Shown: in pieces, positions 2,627-41,810 of the stretch
Position numbering within the stretch: position 1 is the stretch's first letter
How the letters are laid out: every line of letters starts with the position of its first letter
Sequence record: PQ295795
Strand: one strand, 5' to 3'
DNA: 44,712 bases
DNA from: Escherichia phage vB_Eco_Lzu_P1
Position numbers and translations under genes: made by a program
The notes under the pieces: generated by a model
What the model was told of the DNA's origin: nothing
Databases searched by the model: none
The model's input: only the letters and a program-made list of their open reading frames with translations

Positions 2627-2646
2627 GTTCCGCCCTCCTATTGGTG

Positions 2647-2690
2647 TGCAACCAATATAGCAGGGTGCTGGGGTGGATGCAACCAATATT
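2647..2690 (-). promoter_or_regulatory. Sigma70-like promoter (minus strand) built from two direct copies of the ATATTGGTTGCA motif
   Basis: Minus strand: TTGCAT - 17 nt - TATATT, second motif copy ending about 20 nt before the RBS of the 2626 gene. Confidence 0.5.
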
Positions 2691-2841
2691 AATCACGCGC
2701 ATGAAAAAGTCGATCGCTATCCGTTGCAACTGCAAACTGCATTTTTCACACCCCATTCAGCAACTCGCATTGGTTGCCTAGTTCAGTGACGACCGCAATC
2801 CGCAACATGCTGCCGTGTATTTTGCAATCCCGGATTTTATG

Positions 2842-3012
2842 CAGTCTCAGACGAGGGGGGCCATTGACCCCCGTCTAGTCTGAAAGACTGGGCTTTGTCC
2901 CGCCTGTCCCGCTCCCCTCCAGGCCGCGTCATCTGTGGGCGGGACGGGGTGCTGTCCCGCTTTGTCCCGCCTCCTGTTTGTCCCGCTTTTTGTCCCGCTT
3001 ACTTTATGCAGT
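2842..3012. repeat. Non-coding hairpin plus GTCCCGC iteron element, copy A
   Basis: 2842-2911 identical to 30662-30731 (70 bp); imperfect hairpin AGACGAGGGGGG-ccattga-CCCCCGTCT; at least six direct TGTCCCGC units plus one inverted; ends with TTTATGCAG as in copy B. Confidence 0.85.
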
Positions 3013-3104
3013 TTTATTGCATAACTATGCATTATATTCACACTACACGGCAACCAATGTGACCAGATAAAAACGCTCAAAATGGAAACCAATGCGCGCA
3101 AAAT

Positions 3105-5369
3105 TTAATCGTTCAGGTCGTCATCGGTCGCCGAAAGCGTGATGGGGATATCCGATTTGATGACTAAATTCGACGACCCATATATGGCCCCGGTGTGCGG
3201 ATCTGTATAGAAACCGATCACGCCGCGCTCAACCATATCGTCGATTGCCTTCGTCGAAGTGCCCCCCTTCGCGAGTCCTGCCTGGCGGACTATTGCCGAT
3301 TTACTGAAACCAGTATGGTCCGGGTTATCTTCCATCAGTTTTTCCAGGGCCGCGTAAAGTACCTTTTCTTTTTCGGTGCGCGGTCCGGCGGTGTTCTCAT
3401 CCTTAACTGCGGCTTTTCCTGCGGCCTTCGCCTGTTCTATAGCGAACGGTGCCAGGGCGACCGGTACGAGGTATAAAGTCTCGTCGCGCGGGGTGGACGC
3501 AATTGGTTTGACGTCCCAACCAGCAACTACGTCACCGAAGTCTGGCCCGGTGCTGGTGGACTGGTGCGACGCGAACGCTTCTGACTTGCGGAGATCTACC
3601 GCCACCTTGCACTTGAGCAGGACGAAGCCACGCGGCGCTTGCTTGATGCCGTTACGTGACTTTTCGTGATACAGGTTAAGTTGTCCCGGCTGGTTGTCGT
3701 CCGGCTGTTCCAGGAAGAAAGCTGAATCGACAGCGCCATGCAGTGCGCCGGATCCGCGTGGGGTTCTGCTGCCGTTTGCACCCTTCGCCGGGTGGTGGAT
3801 GACGCCCGCACTGCCACCTGTGTTTTCCGCAATGGCCTTCAGCGCTTTGACCACTTCACCCATATCGCTGGCGTTGTTCTCGTCAAACGGTTTAGCATCG
3901 GCGGACCGCAGCGCAACAGTCTGGTTGAGTGAGTCGAACGCCACCAGGCCAACAGGTTCGCCGTTAGCGGTGCGGTTGATAAAGCTGATAACTTCGCGCA
4001 AACCGGACTTGCTGGTGATATCCCAGCCGCGAGACTGCAGGTCGATAATGTGCAGCTTGTCCAGGTCGTGCTCGTATTTAATCTGCAATGCTTCTTTGCG
4101 CTGGTTGGAGGCTTCGCCGCCTTCCGCGTCGAAATAGAAGCAATGAGACTGGACGACCTTCGCACCGCCAAACGGGATACCCGCGGCAACCGCGCCCATT
4201 TGGCCCAGCACATAGAAAGACTTACCGATATTCGACTCACCAGCCATATACCAGGTTGATTTAAAGTTAATCAACCCCTCGATTATCGGGTCGTGCTTGC
4301 TGAACAGTGCGACCGGCTCGTTATCCAGATCCGCATCGGTGCACACGCCGTATTCTTCGCCGTCGCCAACCGCATCAACAATATGATCATATAAGGATTC
4401 TACTTCCTCGTCGTCCAGACCTGGCAGGATGGCGGCGATTTGCTTACGTGACATGTTGTGCGGCTCGACGTTCAGGTGGTCCGGTATCCCGATAAGACGT
4501 AGCGCCAGGTGCTGGTGTCTATTTAGCTCAGAGCAACACTCGTTGCCGGTGTGCATACACTTGAAACGGATCTCGCCATCCTTGACCATGATAGCCGTCG
4601 ACCCTTCGCCGCTGTGCAGATGTTCGTTCGGGCACGGCACTTCATAACCGCGACCGGAAGATAACTCCTCGAATCCTGCCTGGAAGCACCAGTCCAGAAT
4701 GCCGTCAGCCACTGCGTCGTCGCCCTGGGTAAGCTCACGGCGTACTTCCTCTTTCTCCACTCCCAGCTTGTCAGCCAGGCGAAGCAGACGACGCACACTG
4801 GCGCGCTTGCCGTAGTGACACTTAATAACAGACTGCTGGTGTGGTAGGTACATAAGACGGTTTGTGTCTTTCGTGCAGTCGTCGAAGTCCACATCAGACA
4901 GGCCCAGTTGGTCTAACAGCGCGTACTGGACGCGGCCCAGGTCTTCCGCCGGTACTGGTTTATCTGTGAGCACAAGGAAACGGGCGCAACGCGTGCCGCC
5001 TTTCAGCGGGTGGCGGTCGCCGGTGGTTGTGTGGAATACGTGCTCCAGCCCCGCGTCGATAAAAGCCTTACGGCAGCGGCGTAGGGTGCGAGTGTCGGTG
5101 CGGTCAATATCAAAGAACAGGATCGAGCGGTCCACCGCACTGGTCTTGCGGCGTAGGCCGTCACTGGTATATGCCACGATGCCATCGGCCTTACGCTTGC
5201 GGCGCGCATACTCGGCTTTATCTTCCGTCTTGTTGATATGCACCGAGGAGATTTCTTTCGCGTCATTGATAAATTCGAAAAATTCATCGGTGGTCATCTG
5301 GAAGTTTTCCGCCCTGGCTTTTTCGCCTTTTTTAGCGGGTCGTGTTACCGCGAATTTAATTAAGCTCAT
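3105..5369 (-). CDS. DNA primase-helicase (N-terminal primase-polymerase-like domain, RecA/DnaB-like ATPase with Walker A GESNIGKS)
   Basis: 754-aa ORF; Walker A GESNIGKS, cysteine/histidine cluster CPNEHLH...CMHTGNECC, acidic FFDIDRTD motif typical of primase-polymerase domains. Confidence 0.7.
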   Translation of the reverse strand: MSLIKFAVTRPAKKGEKARAENFQMTTDEFFEFINDAKEISSVHINKTEDKAEYARRKRKADGIVAYTSDGLRRKTSAVDRSILFFDIDRTDTRTLRRCRKAFIDAGLEHVFHTTTGDRHPLKGGTRCARFLVLTDKPVPAEDLGRVQYALLDQLGLSDVDFDDCTKDTNRLMYLPHQQSVIKCHYGKRASVRRLLRLADKLGVEKEEVRRELTQGDDAVADGILDWCFQAGFEELSSGRGYEVPCPNEHLHSGEGSTAIMVKDGEIRFKCMHTGNECCSELNRHQHLALRLIGIPDHLNVEPHNMSRKQIAAILPGLDDEEVESLYDHIVDAVGDGEEYGVCTDADLDNEPVALFSKHDPIIEGLINFKSTWYMAGESNIGKSFYVLGQMGAVAAGIPFGGAKVVQSHCFYFDAEGGEASNQRKEALQIKYEHDLDKLHIIDLQSRGWDITSKSGLREVISFINRTANGEPVGLVAFDSLNQTVALRSADAKPFDENNASDMGEVVKALKAIAENTGGSAGVIHHPAKGANGSRTPRGSGALHGAVDSAFFLEQPDDNQPGQLNLYHEKSRNGIKQAPRGFVLLKCKVAVDLRKSEAFASHQSTSTGPDFGDVVAGWDVKPIASTPRDETLYLVPVALAPFAIEQAKAAGKAAVKDENTAGPRTEKEKVLYAALEKLMEDNPDHTGFSKSAIVRQAGLAKGGTSTKAIDDMVERGVIGFYTDPHTGAIYGSSNLVIKSDIPITLSATDDDLND

Positions 5370-5379
5370 TGCCGTTGCC

Positions 5380-5709
5380 TTACTTCGAAGTTTTATTATT
5401 GCGTACCCAGGAGCGCACGGTGCTCTGATTAATTCCTGTCAACTCAGCGATCATTGCCCAGGATTTGCCCTCGGCGCGCAAACGGATAACCTGTTTTTTG
5501 TATTCTTCCATTTCGTCATTGTGCTTTTGCAGCTTGCTTGCTGCCGTGCCGTTGAGTAATTCCAGCTTCGCGGTAAGCTCCTTCTCAGCACGCGATAATC
5601 TGGACACTTCAAATAACAGAGTATCCACCGCATTTGTGTAATACCAGGATTTACCCGCTTCGCCGCGGATTGCATTAGATAACACTTCAATTGCTTCTTT
5701 GATATTCAT
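5380..5709 (-). CDS. Helix-turn-helix DNA-binding protein (putative transcription regulator)
   Basis: C-terminal GKSWAMIAELTGINQSTVRSWVRN is a classic HTH; first gene of the minus-strand block next to the divergent promoter region. Confidence 0.55.
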   Translation of the reverse strand: MNIKEAIEVLSNAIRGEAGKSWYYTNAVDTLLFEVSRLSRAEKELTAKLELLNGTAASKLQKHNDEMEEYKKQVIRLRAEGKSWAMIAELTGINQSTVRSWVRNNKTSK

Positions 5710-5875: not shown

Positions 5876-5885
5876 AAATTAGTTG

Positions 5886-5914
5886 TTGACTCCCTTCTGC
5901 AACCAATCTAATAT
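5886..5914 (+). promoter_or_regulatory. Early promoter (sigma70-like) for the plus-strand replication block
   Basis: TTGACT - 17 nt - TAATAT; spacer contains TGCAACCAAT motif. Confidence 0.55.
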
Positions 5915-6110
5915 TCACCTCGTCGACAGGATGCAGGAAGCAAACTGGAGAGGGGCAACGCAGGGGCCGGATCGAAGTGTCAGGATTCCCAACCGTGATT
6001 ATATAACCCGGTCCACTACCCGAAAGGGAGAACGCGCAACCGGGCGCTATGTTAAGGCCACCGACGAAGTTAATGGTCGACACCTAAACTTAACCAATCG
6101 GAGATATACC

Positions 6111-6650
6111 ATGTTTGAGCAAATCGTAAACCTGATCACTCGCGGCGTAGTAGCCCTGGAAATCATCGCTAAGCATTATGAAACCGTTGGCGCTGCCGTA
6201 GACCCAAAAGCAAACGGCACCGCTAAGAAAGGCAAGGCCAAGCCGGAGAACGAAGTCGAAGACGACGATCAGGACGAAGTCGAAGATACGCCCAAAGCGA
6301 AAAAAGGCGCGGCAAAAGAAACCAAGTCTAAAGGTAAGGCCAAAAAAGAAGTCGTAGAGGATGACGACGAGGATGAAGCCGAAGACGAAAAACCGGCTAA
6401 AACCAAAAAAGCACCAGCGAAAGGCAAAGGTAAGAAAGATGCCGATCCGCTGGCAGAGATGCGCGACGAAATCAAACAGTATGCCGCGATTATCGCAGGC
6501 GGTGATGACGACGATGCGAACGACGAATTCGACGACCTGCTGGAATCGTTCGAGATCAAATCAATCGCTAAACTGGAAGACGACGACGTGGAAGACTTCC
6601 ACAAAGACCTGAAAGAAATCGTCGAAACTTATTTCGAACTGGAAGATTAA
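6111..6650 (+). CDS. Highly charged low-complexity protein (alternating acidic and lysine-rich blocks), first early gene
   Basis: ATG at 6111 with GGAGAT RBS; 179 aa with runs such as EDDDQDEVED, KAKKGAAKETKSKGKAKK, GGDDDDANDEFDD; ORF track 5883..6650 includes an upstream extension without RBS. Confidence 0.6.
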   Translation: MFEQIVNLITRGVVALEIIAKHYETVGAAVDPKANGTAKKGKAKPENEVEDDDQDEVEDTPKAKKGAAKETKSKGKAKKEVVEDDDEDEAEDEKPAKTKKAPAKGKGKKDADPLAEMRDEIKQYAAIIAGGDDDDANDEFDDLLESFEIKSIAKLEDDDVEDFHKDLKEIVETYFELED

Positions 6651-8829: not shown

Positions 8830-8894
8830 GGCAACCAAGCCGAACGGGGTGGCTCACAATAACCCCGATACATGTGAAAATGAGGAATTGGAAA

Positions 8895-9674
8895 ATGGCT
8901 AAAGTCAACCTGAAAAATGTGCGCGTATGTTTCCTGAATATTTGGGAACGTGATACCCCTAAACAGGCTGGGCAAAAACCGGCATACCGCGCCGTGATTC
9001 TTCTGGATAAAGAAGATCCGCAGGTGGACAAAGTGGAAGCGGCAGCGCGCGCAGCGCTCACCGTCAAGCTGAAATCCGAGAAGAATGCCGATAAGTGGAT
9101 GGACCGCCACTACGCCCAGGATTCTAAGGAATGCGCAGTCCGCGACGGTGACGAGCGCGACGAAGTAACCGAAGAATTCGAAGGCATGTTGTACATCAAC
9201 GCCAAATCGTTCAAGCAGCCAAACATTCAAACGTCACTCGGCGAGAAGCAGACTGAACAAGGTCTGACCGTAGAAGGCGACGAGATCGAAGGCCAGGAGA
9301 TCTACTCCGGTTGTTATTGCAACGTGTCACTGGATATTTGGGCGTGGAACAATACCAACGGCAAGGGACTCGGTGCTGGGCTTTTAGGTCTGCGCTTCCG
9401 TGATGACGGCGAAGCCTTCGGCGGTGGCGGATCTTCTTGCTCCGACGAAGACCTGGGCGACGATGACGAAAGCCCGCGCAAGTCCAAAAAGTCAAAACGT
9501 CGTGATGACGATGACGAAGATGACAAGCCGCGCAAGTCCAAAAAGTCCAAGCGCCGCGATGACGATGACGACGACGAAGATGAAAAACCTCGTAAACGTC
9601 GTAAGCCACGCGACGATGAAGATGAGGACGAAGACGACGAAGACGAAGCACCACGTAAACGTCGCCGTCGTTAA
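8895..9674 (+). CDS. Putative single-stranded DNA-binding protein with repetitive acidic/basic C-terminal tail
   Basis: ATG at 8895 with GAGGA RBS; N-terminal MAKVNLKNVRVCFLNIWE pattern and acidic tail resemble phage gp2.5-type SSBs; location next to exonuclease and polymerase. Confidence 0.4.
   Translation: MAKVNLKNVRVCFLNIWERDTPKQAGQKPAYRAVILLDKEDPQVDKVEAAARAALTVKLKSEKNADKWMDRHYAQDSKECAVRDGDERDEVTEEFEGMLYINAKSFKQPNIQTSLGEKQTEQGLTVEGDEIEGQEIYSGCYCNVSLDIWAWNNTNGKGLGAGLLGLRFRDDGEAFGGGGSSCSDEDLGDDDESPRKSKKSKRRDDDDEDDKPRKSKKSKRRDDDDDDEDEKPRKRRKPRDDEDEDEDDEDEAPRKRRRR
9474..9660 (+). repeat. Imperfect tandem repeat (about 57-bp unit, 2-3 copies) inside the SSB-like CDS
   Basis: ccgcgcaagtccaaaaagtc...gatgacgatgac repeated, encoding PRKSKKSKRRDDDDEDDK twice, then a degenerate third copy. 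Confidence 0.75.
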
Positions 9675-9903: not shown

Positions 9904-12191
9904 AAGACTTCGAACGCCTGTTTCTCGATACCGAGACATTTAGCGGGGTAGACCTGAAGAAAGTTGGCGCATACGCCTACGCAGAGCACCCAACCACCGA
10001 GATTATGATTTGCACCTACGCCATCGACGAGGGCCGCGTGCAGACATGGGATTGCACCGAGTCCCCCACAATGCCACGTGAACTGCGCAAGGCGCTCCGC
10101 CAGGTATCCCGCAAGAAAGCAAAAATCGTGATGGCTAACGGCCTCCTGTTTGACCGCCTGGTTATTCGCGAGAAGTGGGGCATTGACCTGCCAGTGTGCC
10201 AGATCGAAGACACCATGATTATGGCCTTCCGACACGCGCTGCCGGGTAGTCTCGACATGCAGTGCCAGGTGCTGGGCGTTGACGCAGAACACGCGAAGGA
10301 TAAGGCTGGCAAGGCGCTGATCAAACGATTCTGTAAGCCAACCCCTAAGACCTACAAAATCCGCCGCTACACCCGCGAGACTCACCCTGAAGAATGGGCT
10401 AAATTCCTGCGCTATGCCGCGCTGGATATCATCGCGATGAGGGAAGTCTATTGGCGCATACCGGACTGGGGTAATACGCCGAAGGAAGACGAAATCCTGC
10501 TTATTGACCAGTTGATTAACGACCGCGGCTTCTATGTGGACGTTGACCTGGCACGCGCTGCGATCAAAGCGGTACAGGCGCATAAGGAAGAATTAAAGGA
10601 AGAAGCCCGGGAGCGCTTCGGCGGTAAGCTAACCGGAAATGACTTCCTGCCAGCGCTGCGCGACCTCGCGCCTGCGTTCACAATCCACAACGCGCAGAAA
10701 TCCACGCTTAACGACCTGCTGGAAGATCCAGACTTCCCCGATGAAGGCAAAGTGCTTATCGAGATGCGCCTCGGAGCGTCATCAACGGCGTCGACTAAAT
10801 ACAATCCGCTCGTAAATGGTCTGTCTTCCGATGGTCGCCGCCGTGGGTGTCTTCAGTATGGTGGGGCAAAGCGCACGCTACGCTGGGCCGGTAAAGGCTT
10901 CCAGCCGCAAAACCTGGCGCGAGGCGAGTATAGCGACGACCACGAGGGGAAGATTAAGCGCCGTGAGGGCGAGAGCGATATATCCTTTTGGGTGCGGTCG
11001 CACATGCTCACCAACGGCATCAACTCCCTGTTACGCGGGACCGCACACTGGGCGTATGACATATCGAAGCTAACGGCCTCGACCGTTCGCGGGTGCATTA
11101 TTCCGGCGAAGGGCAAGAAGTTTGTCGTCGCGGACTACTCCAACGTGGAAGGGCGCGGCCTTGCCTGGATCGCTGGCGAGAAAACCGCGCTAATGGTGTT
11201 TAGGGCCGGTCGCGATATTTATTGTGAGACTGCCGGTAAGATGTTCGGCCTCGATCCGGAATACATTAAAGCCAACCGCAAAGACTTACGCCAGATTGGT
11301 AAGGCGTGTGAGTTGGGACTTGGCTATGGCGGCGGCGTGGCTGCGTTCTTGCAGTTCGCTAAAAACCTGGGCCTCGACCTTTATGCGATGGCTGACGTGA
11401 TGAAGGGCACATTCCCCGATCACATTTGGGCGGCGGCGAAACGTGGTTATGAGTATGCCCGCATTAACGAAGCGAAGCGCCCGCCGAAGCCGGGCAAGAA
11501 GGACGAGCGCCCGACTTACATACTGCCGAAAAACGTATGGCTTACGTGTGATGCGATTAAACGCATGTGGCGCGAGGCTCACCCGAAGACGGTAGCATTT
11601 TGGGCCGAGCTTGAGGACGCGGTGCTCTGCGCGATCCGCAATCCGGGCAAAGCGTACTGGGCTGGCGCGAACGTTCGCCCGGATGGTAAGAAAGCGCTCA
11701 AGATAGTCCGCACGAAGGCGAAGCATGACCCAACCTTCGACGAGGAGCGCGACGACCCGAACGCCGCTGGGTGGTGGTTGAAAATTGAGTTGCCGTCTGG
11801 GCGTATTATGAGTTACCCAGGCATTGCGCTGTCAGTGACGACCGAGATCGACGAAGACACCGGCAAGAAACGCACCAGCACCCGCATTAAATATCAGGGT
11901 GAGAATCAGACGACGCGCCAGTGGGGATTCCAGTACACCTACGGCGGCAAACTCACGGAAAACATCGTGCAGGCGCTGTGCCGCGATATCCTCGCATGGT
12001 CCATGCCGGGCGTTGAAGCTGCGGGGTATGAAATCGTCCTGTCAGTGCACGATGAACTGATAACCGAAGTGCCGGATACCGACGACTACACAACCGAGGA
12101 GTTGTGCGCGCTGATGTGCGACCTGCCGGTTTGGGCGAAAGGCTTCCCGCTTGCCGCGGAAGGCGACATTATGTACAGGTACAGAAAATGA
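9900..12191 (+). CDS. Family-A (Pol I-like) DNA polymerase with 3'-5' exonuclease domain
   Basis: 763 aa; Exo I motif LDTETF, motif A DYSNVEGR, motif B RQIGKACELGLGYGGG, motif C VHDEL. Confidence 0.9.
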   Translation: MKDFERLFLDTETFSGVDLKKVGAYAYAEHPTTEIMICTYAIDEGRVQTWDCTESPTMPRELRKALRQVSRKKAKIVMANGLLFDRLVIREKWGIDLPVCQIEDTMIMAFRHALPGSLDMQCQVLGVDAEHAKDKAGKALIKRFCKPTPKTYKIRRYTRETHPEEWAKFLRYAALDIIAMREVYWRIPDWGNTPKEDEILLIDQLINDRGFYVDVDLARAAIKAVQAHKEELKEEARERFGGKLTGNDFLPALRDLAPAFTIHNAQKSTLNDLLEDPDFPDEGKVLIEMRLGASSTASTKYNPLVNGLSSDGRRRGCLQYGGAKRTLRWAGKGFQPQNLARGEYSDDHEGKIKRREGESDISFWVRSHMLTNGINSLLRGTAHWAYDISKLTASTVRGCIIPAKGKKFVVADYSNVEGRGLAWIAGEKTALMVFRAGRDIYCETAGKMFGLDPEYIKANRKDLRQIGKACELGLGYGGGVAAFLQFAKNLGLDLYAMADVMKGTFPDHIWAAAKRGYEYARINEAKRPPKPGKKDERPTYILPKNVWLTCDAIKRMWREAHPKTVAFWAELEDAVLCAIRNPGKAYWAGANVRPDGKKALKIVRTKAKHDPTFDEERDDPNAAGWWLKIELPSGRIMSYPGIALSVTTEIDEDTGKKRTSTRIKYQGENQTTRQWGFQYTYGGKLTENIVQALCRDILAWSMPGVEAAGYEIVLSVHDELITEVPDTDDYTTEELCALMCDLPVWAKGFPLAAEGDIMYRYRK

Positions 12192-12689: not shown

Positions 12690-12715
12690 CGGCGGGCTTG
12701 TCCCGCCATTTTTGG
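12690..12715 (+). terminator. Intrinsic terminator (stem contains the TTGTCCCGCC motif)
   Basis: GGCGGG-cttgt-CCCGCC followed by ATTTTTGG. Confidence 0.5.
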
Positions 12716-15406: not shown

Positions 15407-15435
15407 TTGCATAATCATATTGGTTGCATTATATT
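15407..15435 (+). promoter_or_regulatory. Sigma70-like promoter formed by two direct ATTGGTTGCA motif copies
   Basis: TTGCAT - 17 nt - TATATT; motif copies at 15402-15411 and 15417-15428. Confidence 0.55.
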
Positions 15436-15482
15436 GAGGGTGTCCGGTTTGGACGCCCTTTTTAATACCTGGAGACAACACG

Positions 15483-15941
15483 ATGAAAATTTTACAAGAA
15501 GAGAAAAATTACTGGGCCGCGCAATGCCTCGAAGCCCGCGAGCAAACGGCCAACGCGAAACAATCGGCCGAAATCTTCCGGTCAGGTTATGAAACGGAAG
15601 AAAAGCGTCGCATGGAGTTAGAGGAGCGCTTCGAACTGCTATTCGAATTGATGGGGATTATGCAACGCACCGGATACACCACCAGCGTTGCACTAAACCG
15701 CATCACTGCCGATAGTTTGCGTGAGCACTGTAAACGTGCGGAGGAGTACGTGCGACCGAAGGGCCGCCAGTCTAAGATTGACCGGAAAGACCTGGTGCTG
15801 GTTGCGTGGCGAGGGAACGGGTCTTACTACTCCGACTGCCGACCACTCGGCACCGAGGAATCAAAGCGCGTGCAACGCGTTCTAAACAGTAATAAGAAAA
15901 TTGCCCTGTACGCGATAGATCCAGATCATGCAGAAGAGTGA
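15483..15941 (+). CDS. Hypothetical protein (152 aa)
   Basis: ORF track; GGAGA RBS. Confidence 0.5.
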   Translation: MKILQEEKNYWAAQCLEAREQTANAKQSAEIFRSGYETEEKRRMELEERFELLFELMGIMQRTGYTTSVALNRITADSLREHCKRAEEYVRPKGRQSKIDRKDLVLVAWRGNGSYYSDCRPLGTEESKRVQRVLNSNKKIALYAIDPDHAEE

Positions 15942-16413
15942 GCAAAAAGATAGCTGGCGCACGCCGCCAGCTTTATTTAAACCGCTGCGCCGGAAGTACC
16001 GATTCCGTTATGACATGGCGGCGAGCGACACCAACCACCTGCTACCGCGTTACTTCACGGCAGAGCACAGCGCGCTTGAGGTGGACTGGTCAGAGTTGAA
16101 AGGGTGGAAGTGGTGCAATCCGCCGTATTCCGATCCGCTGCCGTGGGTCGAGTGCGCAGCGCACGGACGCAGGACTGTCATGCTGCTGAATCAGGACACG
16201 TCGACGAAGTGGGCGAGGCTGGCCCGGAAGACTGCAAACCTGATAATTCTTCTGGACTGGCGGATCCGATTCATCCATGCTGTGACCGGTGAAGTCGGGC
16301 CGAGCAATAACAAGTGCCAGCAATTGATAATCTTTGACGAAGCGCCGCCCATCGGCAGCGCACAAATTGAAATAATGAGCGAGAGTGAGTTACATGAATA
16401 TCTTAATCGTTGA
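15928..16413 (+). CDS. Phage-type DNA N6-adenine methyltransferase
   Basis: WCNPPYS (NPPY catalytic motif) and N-terminal WRTPP; size and layout typical of small phage Dam-like enzymes. Confidence 0.7.
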   Translation: MQKSEQKDSWRTPPALFKPLRRKYRFRYDMAASDTNHLLPRYFTAEHSALEVDWSELKGWKWCNPPYSDPLPWVECAAHGRRTVMLLNQDTSTKWARLARKTANLIILLDWRIRFIHAVTGEVGPSNNKCQQLIIFDEAPPIGSAQIEIMSESELHEYLNR

Positions 16414-18013: not shown

Positions 18014-18589
18014 ATGTACGGCGAATACGAAATATCTGGTAAACAATTCCACCTGGCGGCAATGATCGCAAGCATAGAGTTTGACCAGTGGCGCTTAAAG
18101 TCTGACGCGTGCAAGCAAAGCCGTCTTGTCGGTGTGCTGGGCGAGATGTTTGCGGGCATGTACCTGGAAGGGCAGGCAGGCGGTCGAAGTTGTATCCCGC
18201 AAGGCTTACTAATGCGTACCGGCCTGTTTAGCGCTAATACTATCGACCGCGGCGATATTATCATGGTTGGCAAGCGCAAGGTTAAGTCCGGTCCTGACTT
18301 CCGCGAGCATACGATCGATGCCGTATGGACATACGAGGTTAAAGCCACCAGCGGCATCCGTCGCGGACTGGTAGAGGCACGTTGCGCTCGCGAGTATCTC
18401 ACTCGTCGGGTTGCCGGTGTTATTCTGGTGGGGGTGTCGTTCGGGCAGCATAGCGCCATCGGCGTGATTGAGGATATTGCGGAGCCATACGTGATAGTGA
18501 ACGATTGGCCCCTGGTGGAAGTGGAAGGAAAGGAATATTACGAAAGCCCGCTGGTTCGGCGCAAAATGGACTGGGAAAACTCAAACTAA
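18014..18589 (+). CDS. Hypothetical protein (191 aa), possible PD-(D/E)xK-like nuclease
   Basis: ORF track; AGGA RBS; segment DAVWTYEVKATSG resembles a D...E-x-K core, weak. Confidence 0.4.
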   Translation: MYGEYEISGKQFHLAAMIASIEFDQWRLKSDACKQSRLVGVLGEMFAGMYLEGQAGGRSCIPQGLLMRTGLFSANTIDRGDIIMVGKRKVKSGPDFREHTIDAVWTYEVKATSGIRRGLVEARCAREYLTRRVAGVILVGVSFGQHSAIGVIEDIAEPYVIVNDWPLVEVEGKEYYESPLVRRKMDWENSN

Positions 18590-18620
18590 AAAAGGGGCCG
18601 TATGGCCCCTTTTCTCATTT
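18588..18620. terminator. Bidirectional intrinsic terminator between convergent blocks
   Basis: AAAAAA-GGGGCC-gtat-GGCCCC-TTTTCTCATTT; A-tract on one side, T-tract on the other. Confidence 0.65.
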
Positions 18621-20743: not shown

Positions 20744-21708
20744 TGGGCGCTGGGATACTTATCGACTACAACGACGGAAGGCCGCGCATGGAGATAACCG
20801 CAGGACTTCGCGCGCCGTCATTCTGTACCTCATTCTATCAGCGCTGCCAGTCTGATAAGACGCTTACTATTAACACTCAGCTAACGCCAGGGTCAGATCT
20901 GGTCGTCGCGCTCACAAGCCCCGTTGAAGTTATAGAAGTATTCGACCAGACACTGGTCTTGCCCGACCCTTTCTACGTCACCTCAGTACAACGTAACGGG
21001 GATGGCGGAATCACCTTGCGAGGTGAAGACGCATATGGCGCATATAGCGGGCTTCCAACATGGGGCGGGGTGATCATGGAAGTGTTGCCGGTTGGTTCGC
21101 GCAACGCAGGGTTACTGGTGGCGAACTCGACGGACTTCACCGCCATATCAAATGTATCCAGGCTAATGACCTGCCAATATGCGCAGCGCGTGTGGGTGAA
21201 CGGAAGTATGCCGTTACCTGTAGGCGGTGTCCCATTCGCGCGCTGGGACGACGGAAACGTGTCGGTCGGCTTCGATGGCGGAAGTATTATCGTCCGTAAT
21301 GCGTCCTATGGCGGGATTGACGACGTAGGCGCTGCCGTTGAAATGGACCTGGTTATATTCAACAATACGCCACCCACCCCTGGAAACGGCATCACCATGA
21401 CAAACAACCAGGGTCAGGTCACGTTCTCAACAGTGAATAAGCCATTTGTTTATGACCGCCTTATCTATATCGGCGGCGGCGATCAGTACATAGGCAATAG
21501 CCTGGTCCAGCTTTCGTATACCGGCGCGCTCATTGAGAACAACGGCGGCTACAATCACGTTCGAATGAACGGGATTCGAATGGCAGGCGGTAATGTGCGC
21601 ATCGCCAAAAACCGGGTAATCGGCAACTATTCACGGCAGCAATTCCAAATGCCGGGTAAAAATATTGCAGTACCCACCCCGTTACTCGTAATTCCTAACA
21701 TCTATTAA
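20743..21708 (+). CDS. Glycine-rich beta-type protein (321 aa), function unknown; co-transcribed with the lipoprotein
   Basis: ORF track 20734..21708; ATG at 20743 overlaps lipoprotein stop (TAATG); opposite orientation to surrounding tail genes. Confidence 0.5.
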   Translation: MGAGILIDYNDGRPRMEITAGLRAPSFCTSFYQRCQSDKTLTINTQLTPGSDLVVALTSPVEVIEVFDQTLVLPDPFYVTSVQRNGDGGITLRGEDAYGAYSGLPTWGGVIMEVLPVGSRNAGLLVANSTDFTAISNVSRLMTCQYAQRVWVNGSMPLPVGGVPFARWDDGNVSVGFDGGSIIVRNASYGGIDDVGAAVEMDLVIFNNTPPTPGNGITMTNNQGQVTFSTVNKPFVYDRLIYIGGGDQYIGNSLVQLSYTGALIENNGGYNHVRMNGIRMAGGNVRIAKNRVIGNYSRQQFQMPGKNIAVPTPLLVIPNIY

Positions 21709-21736
21709 AAAGGGGCCGGATGGCCCCTTCTCCTTT
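21707..21736. terminator. Bidirectional intrinsic terminator
   Basis: AAAAA-GGGGCC-ggat-GGCCCC-TTCTCCTTT; same stem as terminators at 18594, 31675 and 37365. Confidence 0.6.
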
Positions 21737-26528: not shown

Positions 26529-27317
26529 CTACCCCTTGATTAATTTGGACCCAGGAAAACCACCGAAGTCCAGCACCGCAGCTTTAGGATCCGCAAGCCC
26601 TTGCCCAAAACGAAGATAGCAGTCGGACAAACAGCCGCCGCATCGGTCCATATTCATCGCAATGACTTCATTACCACGCTCGTCGTAATACTTGATCCCA
26701 GGCTTCGCAAGGTTCCACGTACACCCGTCCCCGCTGGCGTACTTCCCGTTGAGCGCCCATTCGCACATATTCATGATTTGGCGACGGGGTACGACCTGCC
26801 CTTCCATATCCGCAGGTGAGGATAGTGCGAAGGTGATTTGCTTGCCAGGATTGCGCCCGACCTGCGAGTCGATGTAATACTCCTGAACTCGTTTCTGCGT
26901 CGGGTCTGGATCTGTCCCGTTGTCCAGGAACTTCGCGAACGTATCAATGATCTCAACCTTCGCGCCCAGTAGCTGGTCGTGGTTCAGCGACAGCCGGGTG
27001 ATAACTCCTCCAATATCGACAATGGTCAGTTGCGGTTCTGCTGCCGTTGATGTGGAGAAGTTGAGGCCGGACAAATCGAAGGGCCAAAATTCGAACTCCT
27101 GCCCGCCGAAGAAGATGGATTTTGGCTTCAGCTTATCCTCGTCACCCCCAGCGGCAGCAATATCCTCGGCAGTGTGCGGAATAAAGCAGTAATGAAAATA
27201 GTGGTGGCCCGCGCCGATCGCACCGTCTCCTGGTTCCACGTCCTGCGCGTCAATGTGAATCAGGCGAACGCGGCCCGATGGGTCAAAGCGCGTCGCCTCA
27301 CGATATAATTTATTCAT
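26529..27317 (-). CDS. Minor tail protein (lambda L-like) with C-terminal cysteine cluster
   Basis: 262 aa; C-terminal CEWA...C..C...CGGC cluster consistent with the Fe-S site of L-type proteins; gene order. Confidence 0.65.
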   Translation of the reverse strand: MNKLYREATRFDPSGRVRLIHIDAQDVEPGDGAIGAGHHYFHYCFIPHTAEDIAAAGGDEDKLKPKSIFFGGQEFEFWPFDLSGLNFSTSTAAEPQLTIVDIGGVITRLSLNHDQLLGAKVEIIDTFAKFLDNGTDPDPTQKRVQEYYIDSQVGRNPGKQITFALSSPADMEGQVVPRRQIMNMCEWALNGKYASGDGCTWNLAKPGIKYYDERGNEVIAMNMDRCGGCLSDCYLRFGQGLADPKAAVLDFGGFPGSKLIKG

Positions 27318-27913
27318 CTTACAAACCCGATAGCAGTCTTAAGGGTGGCGGATACCGTTGCCGTGTAGTGTCCGTTGTCAGTGTACGACAAGCTCGAGCG
27401 CTCGACCACGAATAAACCTGTTTCGCCATCCGGCGCGGTGACGATGAACGGTTTTACGAAGTGCCCGCGAAGGAAGTTGTAAACCAGTTTAGGGTTGCAC
27501 CACTTGTCGGTAGTCAGTCCTATGAATTGCACGGGGAACTGTTTCGTTTCGGCGTTCGGGCCGTCCGCAATGTTCTGTCCGTAACCGTTACCGAATTGCA
27601 ATTCCTCGGACCGGAAAGCCAACTGCACGTCTCCGCCGCCTTGCAATTGCATGTGCCAGTAATAGGGCCATTCGTTTGATCGCGGGTCGTGTGCTTCTAT
27701 TAGCTCATATACCGCACCGGATTTCGTTGGACCGGCCCAGTTATCCACCAGAGTGATGACGGTGTTAGAGTTGAATGCCGCAATTTTTCCGGTGTAGTCG
27801 TTGCCGTCGATGCGGGCGAATACGCGTACCTTCCCGACCTCGCTCAAGAACGCCGTTCCCGCGCCCGTGACGGTCTTACTTCCGTTCGTTAGTGTGATTG
27901 TACCTTGTGCCAT
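27314..27913 (-). CDS. Minor tail protein in the lambda M position (199 aa) sharing an N-terminal motif with the tail fibre
   Basis: Gene order after tape measure; MAQGTITLTNGSKTVTGAGTAF resembles MAAGTLSVTNNSKAVVGVGTTF of the 18615..20438 fibre. Confidence 0.55.
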   Translation of the reverse strand: MAQGTITLTNGSKTVTGAGTAFLSEVGKVRVFARIDGNDYTGKIAAFNSNTVITLVDNWAGPTKSGAVYELIEAHDPRSNEWPYYWHMQLQGGGDVQLAFRSEELQFGNGYGQNIADGPNAETKQFPVQFIGLTTDKWCNPKLVYNFLRGHFVKPFIVTAPDGETGLFVVERSSLSYTDNGHYTATVSATLKTAIGFVR

Positions 27914-30591: not shown

Positions 30592-30661
30592 TTATGCAGT
30601 CCCCCCTTTTTATGCAGTTGCCGTCGGTCATTGTATCAGCGAATTTAAAACAAACCTTATT

Positions 30662-30975
30662 CAGTCTCAGACGAGGGGGGCCATTGACCCCCGTCTAGTC
30701 TGAAAGACTGGGCTTTGTCCCGCCTGTCCCGATCGGCTAAAACCCACGGCAGCACTGACGGGGACAGGGGTGCTGTCCCGCTTTGTCCCGCCTCATTCTG
30801 TCCCGCTTTCTGTCCCGTTTGTTTTATGCAGAAAAACCGCATAGCTATTCACTTTTAAGGGGCGGGACAGATCGGGACATCACCCCGTCCCGCTTTTAGT
30901 TTATGCAATGAAAGTGAGTATATATGCTGTTTAATGGTGGCGGGACAAAACGGGACGTCCCGCCTGTCCCGCTTC
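30662..30975. repeat. Non-coding hairpin plus GTCCCGC iteron element, copy B, with extra iteron cluster
   Basis: 30662-30731 identical to 2842-2911; about nine direct and several inverted (G)TCCCGC units; inserted between the GT chaperone stop and the tape-measure start. Confidence 0.85.
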
Positions 30976-30976
30976 G

Positions 30977-31653
30977 TTATGCGGGGTTCTGCCGCGCCAT
31001 TTCATCCAGCGCAACGCGTTCCATTAGCTTGATATCTTTAAACGCACGTTGCGCGTTTTCGATGCCGTGCATCTTAAATAACCATTCCAGTACGCCGTAG
31101 TCTATGCCGTATGCCCCGCCAAATCCGGTACGCCATTGCGTGGAGCAATCTGTGAAGACTGCGACTACCTTCGCGTTGTCGGGCCACAGCGCAACTGGTG
31201 GACACACGTCTTCAGGTGTCGCGCCCCATAAACTCGCGGCTAAATCTTCGGAGGGTGGCGGCGGGCCATAAAAGCGCCGCGCCGCCTCAATTAGTTTTTT
31301 TCACGCAACCCCATCAATTCGAGGTAGTACGACGTATGGAACACGCCGAACGCGCGCGGGTAGTTGACTACCAGGCGGCGGACGTTGGCGGCATTAAATT
31401 CGTCCGGCAAATTCCAGCCTTCAGCGACGTGCATGATGGCCTCGACCATAACGTTAAATCCTTCCGGGTCATTGTCGTCATACTCCGACAATTTGCGCTC
31501 AGTGTCCTGCATGGTCTGCGAAAATTCGTCGATAGGGCGGTGGCGCACGGTAAACGTCATTTTGCCCGGTTCGTTCTCACCAGGGCGCGGGATCTCAATC
31601 GGCAGCTTAAAGGTTGGTTTAGGGTCAAGTGTGAAGAGTGGTGCTTTAGCCAT
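30977..31653 (-). CDS. Tail assembly chaperone G-T fusion product (requires -1 ribosomal frameshift near 31294-31302)
   Basis: The -1 frame is open from the slippery site to 30977; downstream ORF lacks its own start context. Confidence 0.6.
31291..31653 (-). CDS. Tail assembly chaperone G
   Basis: ATG at 31653 with GGAGAA RBS; position between major tail and tape measure; ends in the slippery sequence. Confidence 0.65.
   Translation of the reverse strand: MAKAPLFTLDPKPTFKLPIEIPRPGENEPGKMTFTVRHRPIDEFSQTMQDTERKLSEYDDNDPEGFNVMVEAIMHVAEGWNLPDEFNAANVRRLVVNYPRAFGVFHTSYYLELMGLREKN
31294..31302 (-). other. Programmed -1 frameshift slippery site G-AAA-AAA-C
   Basis: Minus strand CGT GAA AAA AAC TAA at the end of G; A-AAA-AAC heptamer. 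Confidence 0.6.
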
Positions 31654-31663
31654 TGTAGTATTC

Positions 31664-31691
31664 TCCAATAAAAAGGGGCCAGTACGGCCCC
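31664..31691 (-). terminator. Intrinsic terminator after the major tail gene
   Basis: Minus strand GGGGCC-gtact-GGCCCC followed by TTTTTATT. Confidence 0.55.
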
Positions 31692-31721
31692 ATATTAACA
31701 CCCGCTATTTAAGCGACCAAA

Positions 31722-36534: not shown

Positions 36535-36563
36535 TTGCATTGCAGACGTTGGTCGCATTATAT
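36535..36563 (+). promoter_or_regulatory. Sigma70-like promoter for the plus-strand 254-aa gene
   Basis: TTGCAT - 17 nt - TTATAT followed by TATATTGGTTGCACACCAA, the same 19-mer as upstream of the 2626 gene. Confidence 0.5.
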
Positions 36564-36593
36564 TGGTTGCACACCAACAACGAGGACACAAAA

Positions 36594-37358
36594 ATGAGAC
36601 TGACAAAAGGCATTAAAAATCAGATCCTAGCTAACATCCTTCGCGACCACGAAATCGCAACCGAAGCCAAACAAATCATGATGGACTCTCGCGACCTGGC
36701 GTACGCGATCACGCTGGACTGTATGCCGGACGGCATTCGCACGTTCGCAGCGCTCCGCGAGCATATCAAGGCAATCCGCGATGACCAGTCGCAGATGTAC
36801 GGCGTCAGCGTATACACCAACAAGGCGACGTATAGTTATAACACCGACCGCCCGAAGGGTATCGGCCGCGTTTACGACGCCACCTTTGAAATCAACGCAG
36901 GCGGCAATGTTCGCACCTTGTCCTTGAGCGGTGACGGTCGCCAATACCGCGTACATCGCGGATACTGGGAAGAGAAATATATGAATAAGCTCTCGCCTGA
37001 TCTCGGCGATATCGTTCCGGGGTTCGAGACAGTTATGCTCGCGTCAGTGTGCGAAGTGGACGAGGAAGGGAAAGCGCTGCCGATATATCTCCCACGCGGT
37101 CGCGTAGACTACCCGGCGGACCATGACTTCTGTAAGCGCCTGGACCGCAACGACAAGGCACGTCGCGAGTTGCGTGCGAAGTATGACGCGTTCAAACTCA
37201 CCGTTACCGGTGTGCTGGACCTGCACAATACTGACAAGAAGCTGATTAAGGCATGGCCTGAAGTTGAGCAATTCATACCATACCAGGACAAGCCAAAATC
37301 CACGGCGGTGGCGCTGGATGTGAAAACTCTCAACGAGATTTGCGGTATTCCGCGCTAA
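36594..37358 (+). CDS. Hypothetical 254-aa protein in an autonomous promoter-gene-terminator cassette inside the head gene block
   Basis: ATG at 36594 with GAGGA RBS; own promoter and terminator; opposite orientation to flanking structural genes. Confidence 0.6.
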   Translation: MRLTKGIKNQILANILRDHEIATEAKQIMMDSRDLAYAITLDCMPDGIRTFAALREHIKAIRDDQSQMYGVSVYTNKATYSYNTDRPKGIGRVYDATFEINAGGNVRTLSLSGDGRQYRVHRGYWEEKYMNKLSPDLGDIVPGFETVMLASVCEVDEEGKALPIYLPRGRVDYPADHDFCKRLDRNDKARRELRAKYDAFKLTVTGVLDLHNTDKKLIKAWPEVEQFIPYQDKPKSTAVALDVKTLNEICGIPR

Positions 37359-37360
37359 TG

Positions 37361-37392
37361 AAAAGGGGCCATTACGGCCCCTTAATTATTTG
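37361..37392. terminator. Bidirectional intrinsic terminator
   Basis: AAAA-GGGGCC-attac-GGCCCC-TTAATTATTT; overlaps the last codons of the o-spanin gene. Confidence 0.6.
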
Positions 37393-38909: not shown

Positions 38910-40413
38910 TGTCCGCTACCTTGTCCGGGTCTTCTTCGGTAGATTCTACCGCATCAGGGGACATTTGAGGCAATGGATTCTGATTTCGCAGTTCGTCTTC
39001 CACCTGCTCGACGGTTTGCGAGTCATCAATGACGCCCTGGGCCATCATCCACTTGATAAAGTCCGCCAGCCGGACCGTACCGGTCTGCACACCCGCCATC
39101 ATTGCGGTCATAAGCTGTGCGTCAACCGTGATTTCGGTGTAGAACTTATTCAGCGTTACGCGTTGATCTGCGGTGTCGCCCGTGAACAGCTTGACGATTT
39201 GCAGCGCACGGTTGAAAGCCTTCTCGACGTTACCGGCAATCAGTGACAGGATACTGTTATCAGTCTGCGCATCGTAGGCCGCTTCGGTTGCCGTCTTAGG
39301 TGCGGTCCCCTTCTCGACCAGGGCCGCGCCAAGTTTAGCCATTTGCAGCTCTCGGCGTTCACACAGTGCGACCGATAGGTTTCGTTCTTCGGCCTGAAGC
39401 AGTTTGGCGTCCATGTTCTGACCCAGGATAACGCCCTTAGTTGCCCCGAGCGCGATGCCCCCTTTCAGGTTCTTGTCCGCCCATGACTGGGTCAGGCCGG
39501 TCGCAACCAGGGTAGGTTGGCCCACGATGTGCGCAATCTCGGCGACGTCCGCTTCGGCGTTGTAGTGCTTAATGTTGATGGACGCAATATCCGCCAGCGG
39601 CGCGGCGTCCGGCGTCGCGTTGTTGTCCACAGCACCACACCAGCAAAATGGCAGTTGAGTAAGCGCGTTACCGGCGGCATCCACCAGCGGCACAAGGTCT
39701 GTGCGGGTGAAGCCCCGCGGCAAGTCCATTTGCACTTCGGACGTGTCCGCGTTGTAAAACCAGCGGCGACCATGTGCCACACCGTTAACCATGCGAAGCT
39801 CAGTCCAGATCGTTACTTCGTGGTTTGCGAAGTCGTCCGGGTCTTCGGTGCTGATTTCGTCCGTTTCCTTCAGCACGATTAGCGTGTCGACCCCGTGGGT
39901 CTGCCGCCAGTTAATGATCTGTTCAGCCGTATACAGGCGGATAAGCGGGCGGTGTGCCGCCATTTCAGCGGCTGTCTGCGGCACTACGTTACCCAGTTCA
40001 TCAAAGTTAGCCTGGCGGTCGTAGTCCACCATAAAGCCAGCGCGGCCCGATTGCAGCACTTCCGACATAGCGCCGCGCAGGAGTTGCGCCAGCGGCATCC
40101 CGCTGCCGTCTACGTCATCAATCAGGTCAGCCATTGCCCCGGAAAGGTCCATACTCACCGGTTTGGCGAAGGCGACGCCTAACAGCGCGTTAAGGGTTCG
40201 GGCGGTGGCATTCAGGAAGACAGCACGTTGCTTATATGCCTTATAGCGCGCACGCGATTTCGGGTCTGTGGTGTCGCCGCTGGCTGGGTGTGGCAGGTAC
40301 AATGGTCCGCACGCCTTTACGGCGCGCTCCCCTGCGACGCAGTCACGGATCATTTTCCACTCTGGCGCGATGCGCGCATATAGCGGGTGTTGGTTGTCAA
40401 CGTTAACGGTCAT
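38893..40413 (-). CDS. Portal protein
   Basis: 506 aa between large terminase and head morphogenesis genes; acidic C-terminus. Confidence 0.7.
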   Translation of the reverse strand: MTVNVDNQHPLYARIAPEWKMIRDCVAGERAVKACGPLYLPHPASGDTTDPKSRARYKAYKQRAVFLNATARTLNALLGVAFAKPVSMDLSGAMADLIDDVDGSGMPLAQLLRGAMSEVLQSGRAGFMVDYDRQANFDELGNVVPQTAAEMAAHRPLIRLYTAEQIINWRQTHGVDTLIVLKETDEISTEDPDDFANHEVTIWTELRMVNGVAHGRRWFYNADTSEVQMDLPRGFTRTDLVPLVDAAGNALTQLPFCWCGAVDNNATPDAAPLADIASINIKHYNAEADVAEIAHIVGQPTLVATGLTQSWADKNLKGGIALGATKGVILGQNMDAKLLQAEERNLSVALCERRELQMAKLGAALVEKGTAPKTATEAAYDAQTDNSILSLIAGNVEKAFNRALQIVKLFTGDTADQRVTLNKFYTEITVDAQLMTAMMAGVQTGTVRLADFIKWMMAQGVIDDSQTVEQVEDELRNQNPLPQMSPDAVESTEEDPDKVADNGEDN

Positions 40414-40424
40414 GGTCGGTTTCC

Positions 40425-41810
40425 TTAGTAGAAGTCTACGGTTGGAACAACGGCGATCGGTCGAATCACAGGGAACAAGTGCGCAATAGGGTAGCCCGCC
40501 GCGTCATTCATGTGGTCCACACCGGCTGTTTTATCCGGTTCGCCTTTCTTCAGGTCGTACACCTGCTGTTCCAGACATTTCGCTAGTGTAGGGCATTTAT
40601 CCAGGTTGACAAAATACTGGCGCACGCCCTTCGAGTTGCACATCATCGTATTCATCGCGATAAGTCTGTCTTTCACTGGCGGGTTAACGCTGTCATATTC
40701 CACATCGAAGCCCGCGTCTTCCAGTTGCGCGATATCGGACGACGACGCGTTGACCGTCTTGCGGGATTTGCCACTGCTATCCGGGTAAACGACGACCCTA
40801 CCGGCGGCACAATGATCGGGGTAGCGCTCCTCGATCGCCTCAATCATCGCCGGGGTGTCGAACAGGTCCACGAATTCGTCCACCGCGTGGATCTCGTCGC
40901 GGAACTCCTTGTTCTCGGTGACTCGCTGCCGCCTGACGTACACAACCGCCGCCATCTTAGTGACGTTAAAGTCCATACCGATAATCAGCGTGTCTTCCGG
41001 CTGCACTTCTTCGGTGCTGGCGTTCTCCTCGCGGTTGAACATCTTGTACACCGCGCCCGACGTAAGGTTAACAAACAGGCCGTTCAGGTACGCGTCGATC
41101 AGGTTAGCTGGGTATTGACTACGCAGCGTGTCGATAAAGTCTGCCGGTAAATGGTGGTTGTCCGTGGTCTTCGCCCGGATCAAGCGTTTTTGGTTATCCT
41201 TCTCCACCTCGAAAATTTGGTACATCGCCCGGTAGCCTTCAGGCGTTGACACGATGACGAACTGGCGGACGAAGCCCGCACGCAGACGACCGAGCAATTT
41301 GTGATATGCCGCCAGCGCGACGTCTTGCTTCGTAGTGTCGAATTCATCTGCAACAATCCACGCGGCGTTGACCCCGATCAGGCGGGTATAGTTCTCCATT
41401 GATTCACAGATAACGCGTGTCCATTTCCCTTTCACCAGCACGTTATAGATCTTGTCCTGCTTATTGAACTTCCACCGGAAGCCCGCCTCGTCAAACGCCT
41501 TTTCCAATTCCGGGTACATGATTTTGACCAGGAGGGGAATAGTCGGTTCTGTAACGATACCGTCATGACCGGGGTTCAGGGTTAAAAGCTGGATGACCTT
41601 ACGCGCAGCGACCCACGACTTTCCACCACCGAAGCCGGAACACAGGCCGAGGATTTTAGTCTTCGTGTCGCGCAGTAGTTCAACCTGGTGCGGCAAGCAA
41701 TCAGGCTGGTAAAGGCGGACGGCCTGCGCAACGCGTGTTGGGCGTGGCGGTCGGTTGCGCTTTGCGATCGCGCGTTCCAGTGCGCGGTGTTCTGCCGCAT
41801 AGTTACGCAT
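40425..41810 (-). CDS. terL: Terminase large subunit
   Basis: Walker A GFGGGKS, Walker B IVADEFD, C-terminal nuclease-type acidic residues; 461 aa. Confidence 0.85.
   Translation of the reverse strand: MRNYAAEHRALERAIAKRNRPPRPTRVAQAVRLYQPDCLPHQVELLRDTKTKILGLCSGFGGGKSWVAARKVIQLLTLNPGHDGIVTEPTIPLLVKIMYPELEKAFDEAGFRWKFNKQDKIYNVLVKGKWTRVICESMENYTRLIGVNAAWIVADEFDTTKQDVALAAYHKLLGRLRAGFVRQFVIVSTPEGYRAMYQIFEVEKDNQKRLIRAKTTDNHHLPADFIDTLRSQYPANLIDAYLNGLFVNLTSGAVYKMFNREENASTEEVQPEDTLIIGMDFNVTKMAAVVYVRRQRVTENKEFRDEIHAVDEFVDLFDTPAMIEAIEERYPDHCAAGRVVVYPDSSGKSRKTVNASSSDIAQLEDAGFDVEYDSVNPPVKDRLIAMNTMMCNSKGVRQYFVNLDKCPTLAKCLEQQVYDLKKGEPDKTAGVDHMNDAAGYPIAHLFPVIRPIAVVPTVDFY

Follow-up and report, generated by a model that had tools for sequence, protein, structure and literature searches.

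The genome of Escherichia phage vB_Eco_Lzu_P1 harbors two copies of a repeated element of roughly 200 bp, each made up of a bulged hairpin and of clustered copies of the octamer (T)GTCCCGC; this two-copy repeat is real, is found throughout the genus Dhillonvirus and looks functional. Most likely, a DNA-binding protein of the phage, probably its primase-helicase, uses the element as a docking array.

The DNA analysed (hereafter the window, i.e., the whole stretch of 44,712 nucleotides of record PQ295795) represents a complete Dhillonvirus genome, belonging to the virulent coliphages of the HK578 / JL1 / SO-1 type. Its first 127 bp are repeated exactly at its end (1-127 = 44586-44712); such a terminal redundancy is typical of circular assembly overlap, and the unique genome is therefore 44,585 bp long. 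A block of minus-strand genes comprises the HTH gene, the primase-helicase gene, small ORFs, and the lysis, terminase, head, tail-shaft and tail chaperone genes, followed on the same strand by the tape-measure, tail-tip and fibre genes. Two further repetitive features of this genome were observed: a 111-nt inverted repeat (1640-1750 / 12074-12184; 80% complementary), whose arms lie 10.3 kb apart in coding regions on opposite strands and may be paralogous gene segments, and acidic GAY/GAR-rich repeats (Asp/Glu runs and KPRK units) at 6253-6595 and 9459-9664, embedded in the plus-strand ORFs 5883-6650 and 8874-9674.

The block is interrupted by two gaps, each of which hosts one copy of the element. 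Gap A (2627-3104) separates the primase-helicase stop (3105) from the start of the next minus-strand ORF (2626), and copy A begins 94 bp past that stop; the original prediction had correctly placed the copy in a non-coding gap after the primase-helicase gene, the length of which is 478 bp rather than 480. Gap B (30595-30976, 382 bp) lies between the gene for the DUF1799 tail chaperone and the tape-measure gene (start codon at 30594). The features referred to below are the following:

2836-3031, minus strand (direction of the flanking genes): copy A of the shared element
30656-30851, minus strand: copy B, with the same module order as copy A and a B-specific spacer at 30732-30759
2842-2890, unstranded: hairpin A, CAGTCTCAGACG-A-GGGGG(G)-loop-CCCCCGTCTAGTCTGAAAGACTG, with one base bulged
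30662-30710, unstranded: hairpin B, identical to hairpin A
2896-2998, unstranded: iteron array A, with direct (T)GTCCCGC units at 2897, 2906, 2954, 2964, 2980 and 2992
2939-2945: inverted unit GCGGGAC of array A, preceded by the A-specific spacer (2913-2938)
3003-3031, unstranded: TTATGCA boxes of copy A, namely TTTATGCAG, an inverted TGCATAA and TATGCA
30860-30984 (30860-30908 and 30938-30984), unstranded: two extra iteron modules of locus B only, each with an inverted pair GCGGGACA-N3-CGGGAC, a direct GTCCCGC and a TTATGCR box
30631-30639, minus strand: TGATACAAT, extended -10-like, between hairpin B and the tape-measure start codon, kept in all B copies
3105-5369, minus strand: primase-helicase (754 aa); N-terminus DxD primase-like, Cys/His motif present, helicase of the AAA_25 RepA/DnaB-like type (residues 357-531); candidate iteron binder
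3159-3374, minus strand: predicted C-terminal winged-helix domain of the primase-helicase (residues ~666-737)
5380-5709, minus strand: 109-aa HTH protein (HTH_23 / sigma-70 region-4-like), first gene of the operon; alternative candidate binder
2726-2727, minus strand: probable pac terminus, five GenBank records beginning at the base equivalent to 2726

The alignment of the two copies confirmed the identity that had first drawn attention to them, i.e., 70 of 70 bp between 2842-2911 and 30662-30731, as well as a second shared segment (the 28-mer GGGGTGCTGTCCCGCTTTGTCCCGCCTC, identical at 2946-2973 and 30767-30794); the middle part, some 28 nt long, diverges between the copies. The two segments are indeed identical, but the shared element is longer than had been proposed, extending over approximately 2800-3031 and 30620-30851. 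The further claim that TTTATGCAG flanks each copy holds for copy A, with the right-hand box at 3003-3011 and not at 3004-3012, and fails for copy B, whose left flank reads TTATTCAG, the nearest TTTATGCAG (30609) being 53 bp farther out.

The heptamer GTCCCGC is clearly enriched: it occurs 20 times in the window versus 9.6 ± 3.1 in shuffled sequences, none of 100 shuffles reaching 20, and 16 of the 20 occurrences fall inside the two gaps, leaving four outside. Likewise concentrated are the GTCCCG hexamers, 20 out of 32 of which lie within about 350 bp; nine of the ten genomes compared have seven hits at locus A versus 13 at locus B, where the two extra modules add to the count (phage EE09 has four at locus A because of a 58-bp deletion, and the Kente assembly is collapsed at locus B). 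One of the four outlying heptamers had been noticed in a terminator stem; the terminator (12691-12707, GGCGGGCTTGTCCCGCC + ATTTTT) does contain GTCCCGCC, which we regard as a coincidence, the G+C stem being of an ordinary kind and no more than four heptamers in all lying outside the gaps. Outside 2896-2998 and 30717-30972 we also observed 12 GTCCCG hexamers, versus about 30 expected from base composition alone, and four heptamers outside the two clusters, versus 9.6 expected for the whole window; this apparent rarity may reflect the avoidance of stray binding sites.

On the plus strand of the window, copy A consists of a TTTATGCAG box, the hairpin, iteron pair 1, the A-specific spacer, the inverted iteron, GGGGTGCT, iteron pairs 2 and 3, a second TTTATGCAG and the inverted TGCATAA/TATGCA boxes. 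According to the alignment of both copies from ten genomes, the order of the modules is fixed: a TTATGCA/TTATTCA box, a 49-nt hairpin, pair 1, a spacer of about 28 nt, the inverted iteron, pairs 2 and 3, TTTATGCA and an inverted TGCATAA. The octamers occur in direct and inverted orientation, mostly as pairs 9-10 bp apart, and a composite GTCCCGY-TT-N3-4-TTATGCR is present four times. The stems of the hairpin are invariant across the genus, with one base always bulged, and its loop is variable (GCCATTGA, TGACAGA, ACAATAC, GCCAGAC). Moreover, 60 bp at 2986-3045 reach 68% A+T, which places them in the top ~1% of the genome and makes them the A+T-richest part of gap A, adjoining the iterons; at 30606-30665 the corresponding value over 60 bp is 63%, both stretches being short and overlapping other motifs.

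The element is non-coding, in that no ORF is conserved across it: the 84-aa ORF at 2847-3101 has no Pfam match, and both this ORF and those annotated over the element in some relatives vary in frame and length. Probing Rfam 15 did not retrieve any match at the gathering threshold, the only two matches being at chance level (E ~0.5).

Conserved counterparts exist throughout the genus. A stretch of about 3 kb at copy A is matched by 158 phage records with 80-95% identity, and in all 158 both loci are matched at the same positions. The modules share 86-90% identity between paralogues and 85-89% between orthologues, i.e., both are about 85-90% alike, whereas the spacers of A and B are unrelated (~50%) and those of B orthologues are 88% identical; within a genome, A and B are 89.7% identical versus 86.2% across genomes (permutation p = 0.0013). 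We take these figures as indicative of an old duplication that selection has maintained and whose copies have undergone some exchange.

These data also bear on the proposal that the repeats bounding the element might be the terminal repeats of a small, non-autonomous (MITE-like) mobile element inserted at two sites. TTTATGCAG does flank copy A and is strongly over-represented (four occurrences versus 0.29 expected), which would be in line with such an origin. However, the boundary is asymmetric at copy B, as reported above, and TTATGCA boxes (14 in the window versus 5.5 expected) are found also inside and beyond the element. No presence/absence polymorphism was detected in ten genomes, each of which has both loci occupied, and the locus-specific spacers are kept among orthologues; being old, they imply that the element has not moved recently. 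Lastly, the invariant 18-mer of the hairpin was found only in Dhillonvirus viral contigs of 43-45 kb, about two per contig, and the element is absent from 5,426 complete Escherichia coli genomes and 72,556 plasmids; the mobile-element reading was rejected, and we consider it effectively refuted.

Several records depart from the regular two-copy layout. In phage EE09 (31680-31780) the 58-bp deletion in copy A removes pair 1, the spacer and the inverted iteron, and probably arose by recombination between repeated GGGGTGCTGTCCCGC units; the primase-helicase of the same phage is annotated as two ORFs. The 16,547-bp "complete genome" of JLBYU27 (OK272475.1) is merely the DNA lying between the two copies, circularised through a hybrid element (10680-11222); the assemblies of Kente and UAE_MI-01 break inside copy B (at the ends of the Kente record and at the start of NC_073074.1), and TH11 (UNVERIFIED) has copy B duplicated (15428-16184). 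In practical terms, direct repeats of this length can cause assemblies from short reads to break or to be joined wrongly.

Beyond Dhillonvirus, lineage-specific repeats were found at the same position in seven other lineages, and a gap of 350-900 bp with its own octamer repeats directly follows the primase-helicase gene in each related lineage compared, except for Jerseyvirus (one Jerseyvirus), in which this gap is absent. A metagenomic contig whose primase-helicase is 68% identical retains both the GCGGGAC iterons and the hairpin after that gene. Elsewhere the repeat is a different one: TCTCCCCC in Salmonella phage SE1, TCGCCCCG in eiAU, TTCCGCACA in Serratia phage Otaku, (A)CTCGCAA in contigs L056 and L057, and GGGAT in contigs L045 and L058, the types of several lineages being called by eye plus 8-mer counts. 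In Guernseyvirinae the repeat cluster follows the primase-helicase gene only, and the tail operon is uninterrupted.

Edwardsiella phage eiAU-183 (Eiauvirus) possesses, in turn, both gaps, one of 897 bp after the primase-helicase gene and one of about 1.1 kb before the tape-measure gene, which have in common a 52-bp block with TCGCCCCG/GCCCGCCCC repeats. The tape-measure gap contains, 40 nt upstream of that gene, the same hairpin core as in Dhillonvirus (GACG-GGGGG / CCCC-T-CGTC, with the bulged T), on a lower stem that differs from the Dhillonvirus one and yet is self-complementary. Since eiAU has the two gaps and the hairpin core with other iterons, the layout and the hairpin predate the genus, the iterons being lineage-specific. 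In the eiAU-183 gap at 26897-27793 we also observed the shared GC-rich block present twice in inverted orientation (~27010 and ~27260), flanking an A+T-rich stretch, and six of the 29 DnaA-box-like sites of that phage (at most one mismatch), four of them inside the A+T-rich stretch.

The question then arises of which protein might read the iterons. The most likely binder would be the winged helix predicted at the C-terminus of the hexameric primase-helicase, the gene of which lies just upstream of copy A. When the protein sequence was compared with solved structures, only a marginal match to RSF1010 RepA was obtained. The winged-helix domain evolves faster than the core of the protein and tracks the repeat type: its identity is 52-59% in pairs with the same repeat and 20-32% between most groups, core identity being similar, as exemplified by the pairs P0015/P0018 (core 63%, domain 52%) and P0015/P0017 (core 61%, domain 30%). 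There is one partial exception, P0017/P0032, with 49% domain identity though assigned different repeats, the repeat type of P0032 being assumed from phage SE1. Similarly, the first 642 residues of the Dhillonvirus and eiAU primase-helicases are 47% identical, and the C-termini cannot be aligned.

The 109-aa HTH protein behaves in a comparable way, for the contig with the GCGGGAC repeats encodes a counterpart showing 84% identity in the HTH part, and an unrelated protein occupies its position in eiAU; as it also varies with the repeat type, it is an equally possible reader. The small subunit of terminase, on the contrary, is unlikely to be one, because it is 44% identical between Dhillonvirus and eiAU despite their unrelated iterons.

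The original prediction had favoured an origin or a regulatory role, and this is still the best class of explanation in the light of the genus-wide conservation, the lineage-specific repeats, the predicted winged helix and the way in which this domain follows the repeat. Within this class, we can depict the following scenario. The (T)GTCCCGC clusters would be bound by a lineage-specific phage DNA-binding domain, most likely the primase-helicase winged helix; the bulged hairpin, together with the A+T-rich TTATGCA segment, would be the site of duplex opening, of helicase-primase loading or of priming; copy A would be an origin beside its initiator gene, and copy B a second origin or a cis-replication region with the same iterons. 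As in iteron-type origins, there is a cluster of repeats and a linkage to the putative initiator gene, the repeats changing alongside its DNA-binding domain. That this domain binds the repeats, that binding starts replication and that the hairpin takes part are steps we infer, and we claim membership in the iteron-type cis elements and in nothing narrower. On the whole, an iteron-type origin or cis-replication pair read by the primase-helicase, comparable to P4 ori/crr or SPP1 oriL/oriR, is the reading we favour, plausible if somewhat short of probable.

Other signals commonly associated with origins did not single out the two loci. The GC skew follows the gene strand only, with no signal at copy A or B, and DnaA boxes (TTATNCACA, at most one mismatch) are not enriched, numbering 32 in the window versus 26.2 expected, with only three in the two gaps. 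TTATGCA was considered as a DnaA box, of which it matches the first seven positions; as position 8 varies freely, the boxes were not given that name. Two aspects of the layout speak against the origin reading: copy B is embedded in the tail operon and the two copies are oriented alike with respect to the late genes that follow them, which a transcriptional role fits at least equally well, and copy A has a probable pac terminus at a distance of 115 bp.

Such a transcriptional role could be that of a control module for the late operon, in which a phage regulator, for which the 109-aa HTH protein is a candidate, would activate, insulate or anti-terminate transcription by binding to the GTCCCGC arrays, copy A acting on the lysis, packaging, head and tail-shaft genes and copy B on the tape-measure, tail-tip and fibre genes, with the hairpin acting in the DNA or in the 5' leader RNA. 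Copy A indeed marks the boundary between early and late genes, and copy B immediately precedes the tape-measure gene; eiAU-183 has gaps at these two positions as well, with their common block, and where the GCGGGAC repeats are conserved, so is the HTH protein. Furthermore, the conserved TGATACAAT after hairpin B may act as a promoter, as its resemblance to an extended -10 box suggests, and hairpin A is succeeded by a similar stretch, TGCAAAAT/TGCATAAT...ACGGCA. An intrinsic terminator on the minus strand (31675-31691), after the major tail gene and upstream of locus B, would make sense of a re-initiation at that locus.

On the other hand, neither gap contains a sigma-70 consensus promoter or an intrinsic terminator in the gene direction, the terminator scan having returned only antisense matches and no minus-strand terminator-like site in either gap; eiAU lacks a -10-like box after the hairpin, and in Guernseyvirinae the cluster is confined to the position after the primase-helicase gene, leaving the tail operon unbroken. 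To our knowledge, arrays of 7-13 sites would be unusual among phage late activators, which also counts against this possibility. We regard the control module as possible but doubtful. As for terminators in general, the records of HK578 and WFI annotate one inside locus B, and four near-identical bidirectional terminator-like hairpins (AAAAGGGGCC-N4-GGCCCCTT) were observed in the window at 18585-18612, 21703-21730, 31667-31694 and 37357-37384, one of them after the major tail gene.

A different possibility is that the hairpin works as a structured RNA in the gene direction, as a processing site, an mRNA stabiliser or a cis antiterminator (nut/put-like), the repeats being secondary. It folds far below shuffled controls (z about -3.3 to -4.2 as RNA), its stems are invariant around a variable loop, and its bulged core (GACG-GGGGG/CCCC-U-CGUC as RNA) recurs before the eiAU tape-measure gene on a different but complementary lower stem; moreover, the conserved TC...GG around a 3-nt loop would allow a C-G plus a U.G pair on the gene-direction strand only. 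Yet both strands fold equally well (z = -3.6 to -4.2 for hairpin A as RNA), and hairpin A folds as DNA too (z = -3.8). RNAalifold, run on 13 sequences, revealed a single compensatory pair and a covariation term of +0.52, that is, essentially no covariation; the hairpin has no Rfam match and no U-tract, and the orientation-independent arrangement of direct and inverted octamers, a signature of DNA recognition, would be left unexplained. An RNA element is therefore, in our opinion, very unlikely.

The remaining alternative concerns packaging. Records WFI, 101114B2, UDS3lw, Pandora71 and SP1, deposited by different laboratories, share their first nucleotide (CAGCAGATAG(C/G)GATC...), equivalent to 2726 on the minus strand, although some of these starts could be copied from earlier records rather than measured. 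This position lies in gap A, 115 bp from hairpin A and midway between two inverted GCAACCAAT motifs (2679-2687 and 2769-2777), and is probably a pac terminus. For one of the five phages, PhageTerm indicated headful packaging with a preferred pac site (PMC13348001), and headful packaging has been reported for other Dhillonviruses (PMC9022532, PMC10059673). Gap A would thus be a composite control region.

One could go further and regard the element itself as part of the pac region recognised by terminase, all the more so because the eiAU-183 record, too, begins in the gap that holds its iterons and hairpin. However, the terminus sequence has no counterpart at copy B, a single pac site being what one would expect, and it is the GCAACCAAT motifs, rather than the GTCCCGC array, that the terminus is centred between. 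In addition, the repeats do not change with the terminase small subunit: between Dhillonvirus and eiAU this protein is conserved to the extent given above and GCAACCAA motifs are common to both genera, and the iterons are completely different. A packaging function of the element is, according to these data, distinctly unlikely.

The motif that surrounds the terminus deserves a separate mention. Besides GTCCCGC, (T)ATATTGGTTGCA / GCAACCAAT is over-represented too: there are 13 occurrences in the form CAACCAAT, most of them apparently intergenic (at 1939, 2649, 2680, 2769, 3051, 5900, 12445, 15402, 15419, 17076, 20455, 36562 and 43797), and among them is an inverted pair that matches exactly over 19 bp (2641-2659 / 36559-36577). 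The corresponding gaps of eiAU, SE1 and several metagenomic relatives are filled with related GCNNCCAAC motifs; possible roles are those of an operator, of a promoter element or of a signal for terminase.

A broader scenario, which we advance as speculative and, taken as a whole, unlikely, would combine these functions in a modular origin spread across a clade of enterobacterial siphoviruses, the hairpin being read by the primase/helicase core and the swappable iterons by the swappable winged helix. In Dhillonvirus and Eiauvirus, the second copy before the tape-measure gene would couple replication, tail-gene expression and, at copy A, packaging in a single hub.

Dhillonviruses are among the commonest coliphages and have been used in phage therapy screens and in studies of defence systems (SECphi4, SECphi18, members of the BASEL collection); we know of no mapping of their origin, their packaging site or their late-gene control. 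To have the origin defined, along with its reader, would aid the engineering and rebooting of these genomes, and it would provide a natural series of matched repeat/winged-helix pairs for following the evolution of initiator specificity.

The repeat is not new as a sequence feature, in that it is already annotated in the congeneric Sodalis phage SO-1 (NC_013600.1), whose repeat region A (11214-11597) is the same element as our copy B and whose region B (40178-40657) is our copy A; that record offers an annotation only, and a search of the literature retrieved no published analysis of the function of these repeat regions. Among better-characterized systems, the probable terminus in gap A recalls the pac site of P1 and the pacL/pacR sites of SPP1, where short repeated motifs reportedly surround the packaging cleavage site; here, in contrast, the terminus is centred on GCAACCAAT and not on GTCCCGC, and the second copy has no matching terminus sequence.

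A close likeness is with the satellite phage P4, the ori and crr regions of which are reportedly bound by the alpha protein. Both systems show octamer iterons in direct and inverted orientation, a pair of separate cis regions of which one follows the replication gene closely, and a single polypeptide that combines primase, helicase and a C-terminal winged helix, the latter being predicted in our case. The proteins differ in kind, P4 alpha having a different primase and a superfamily-3 helicase instead of the DxD primase-like N-terminus and the AAA_25 RepA/DnaB-like helicase found here. We found no sequence relationship between the two systems; the Dhillonvirus regions are 16.8/27.8 kb apart, each with a conserved hairpin, and their binding by the protein and their origin role are putative. 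Bacillus phage SPP1, with oriL and oriR said to be bound by G38P, offers a second parallel, being likewise a virulent headful siphovirus with two distant regions sharing the same boxes, one at the replication genes and the other in the late region. Unlike the putative initiator described here, that of SPP1 is separate from the helicase: it binds the origin and, with the help of a loader, brings in a DnaB-type helicase. The boxes, the proteins and the hairpin are unrelated to those of Dhillonvirus.
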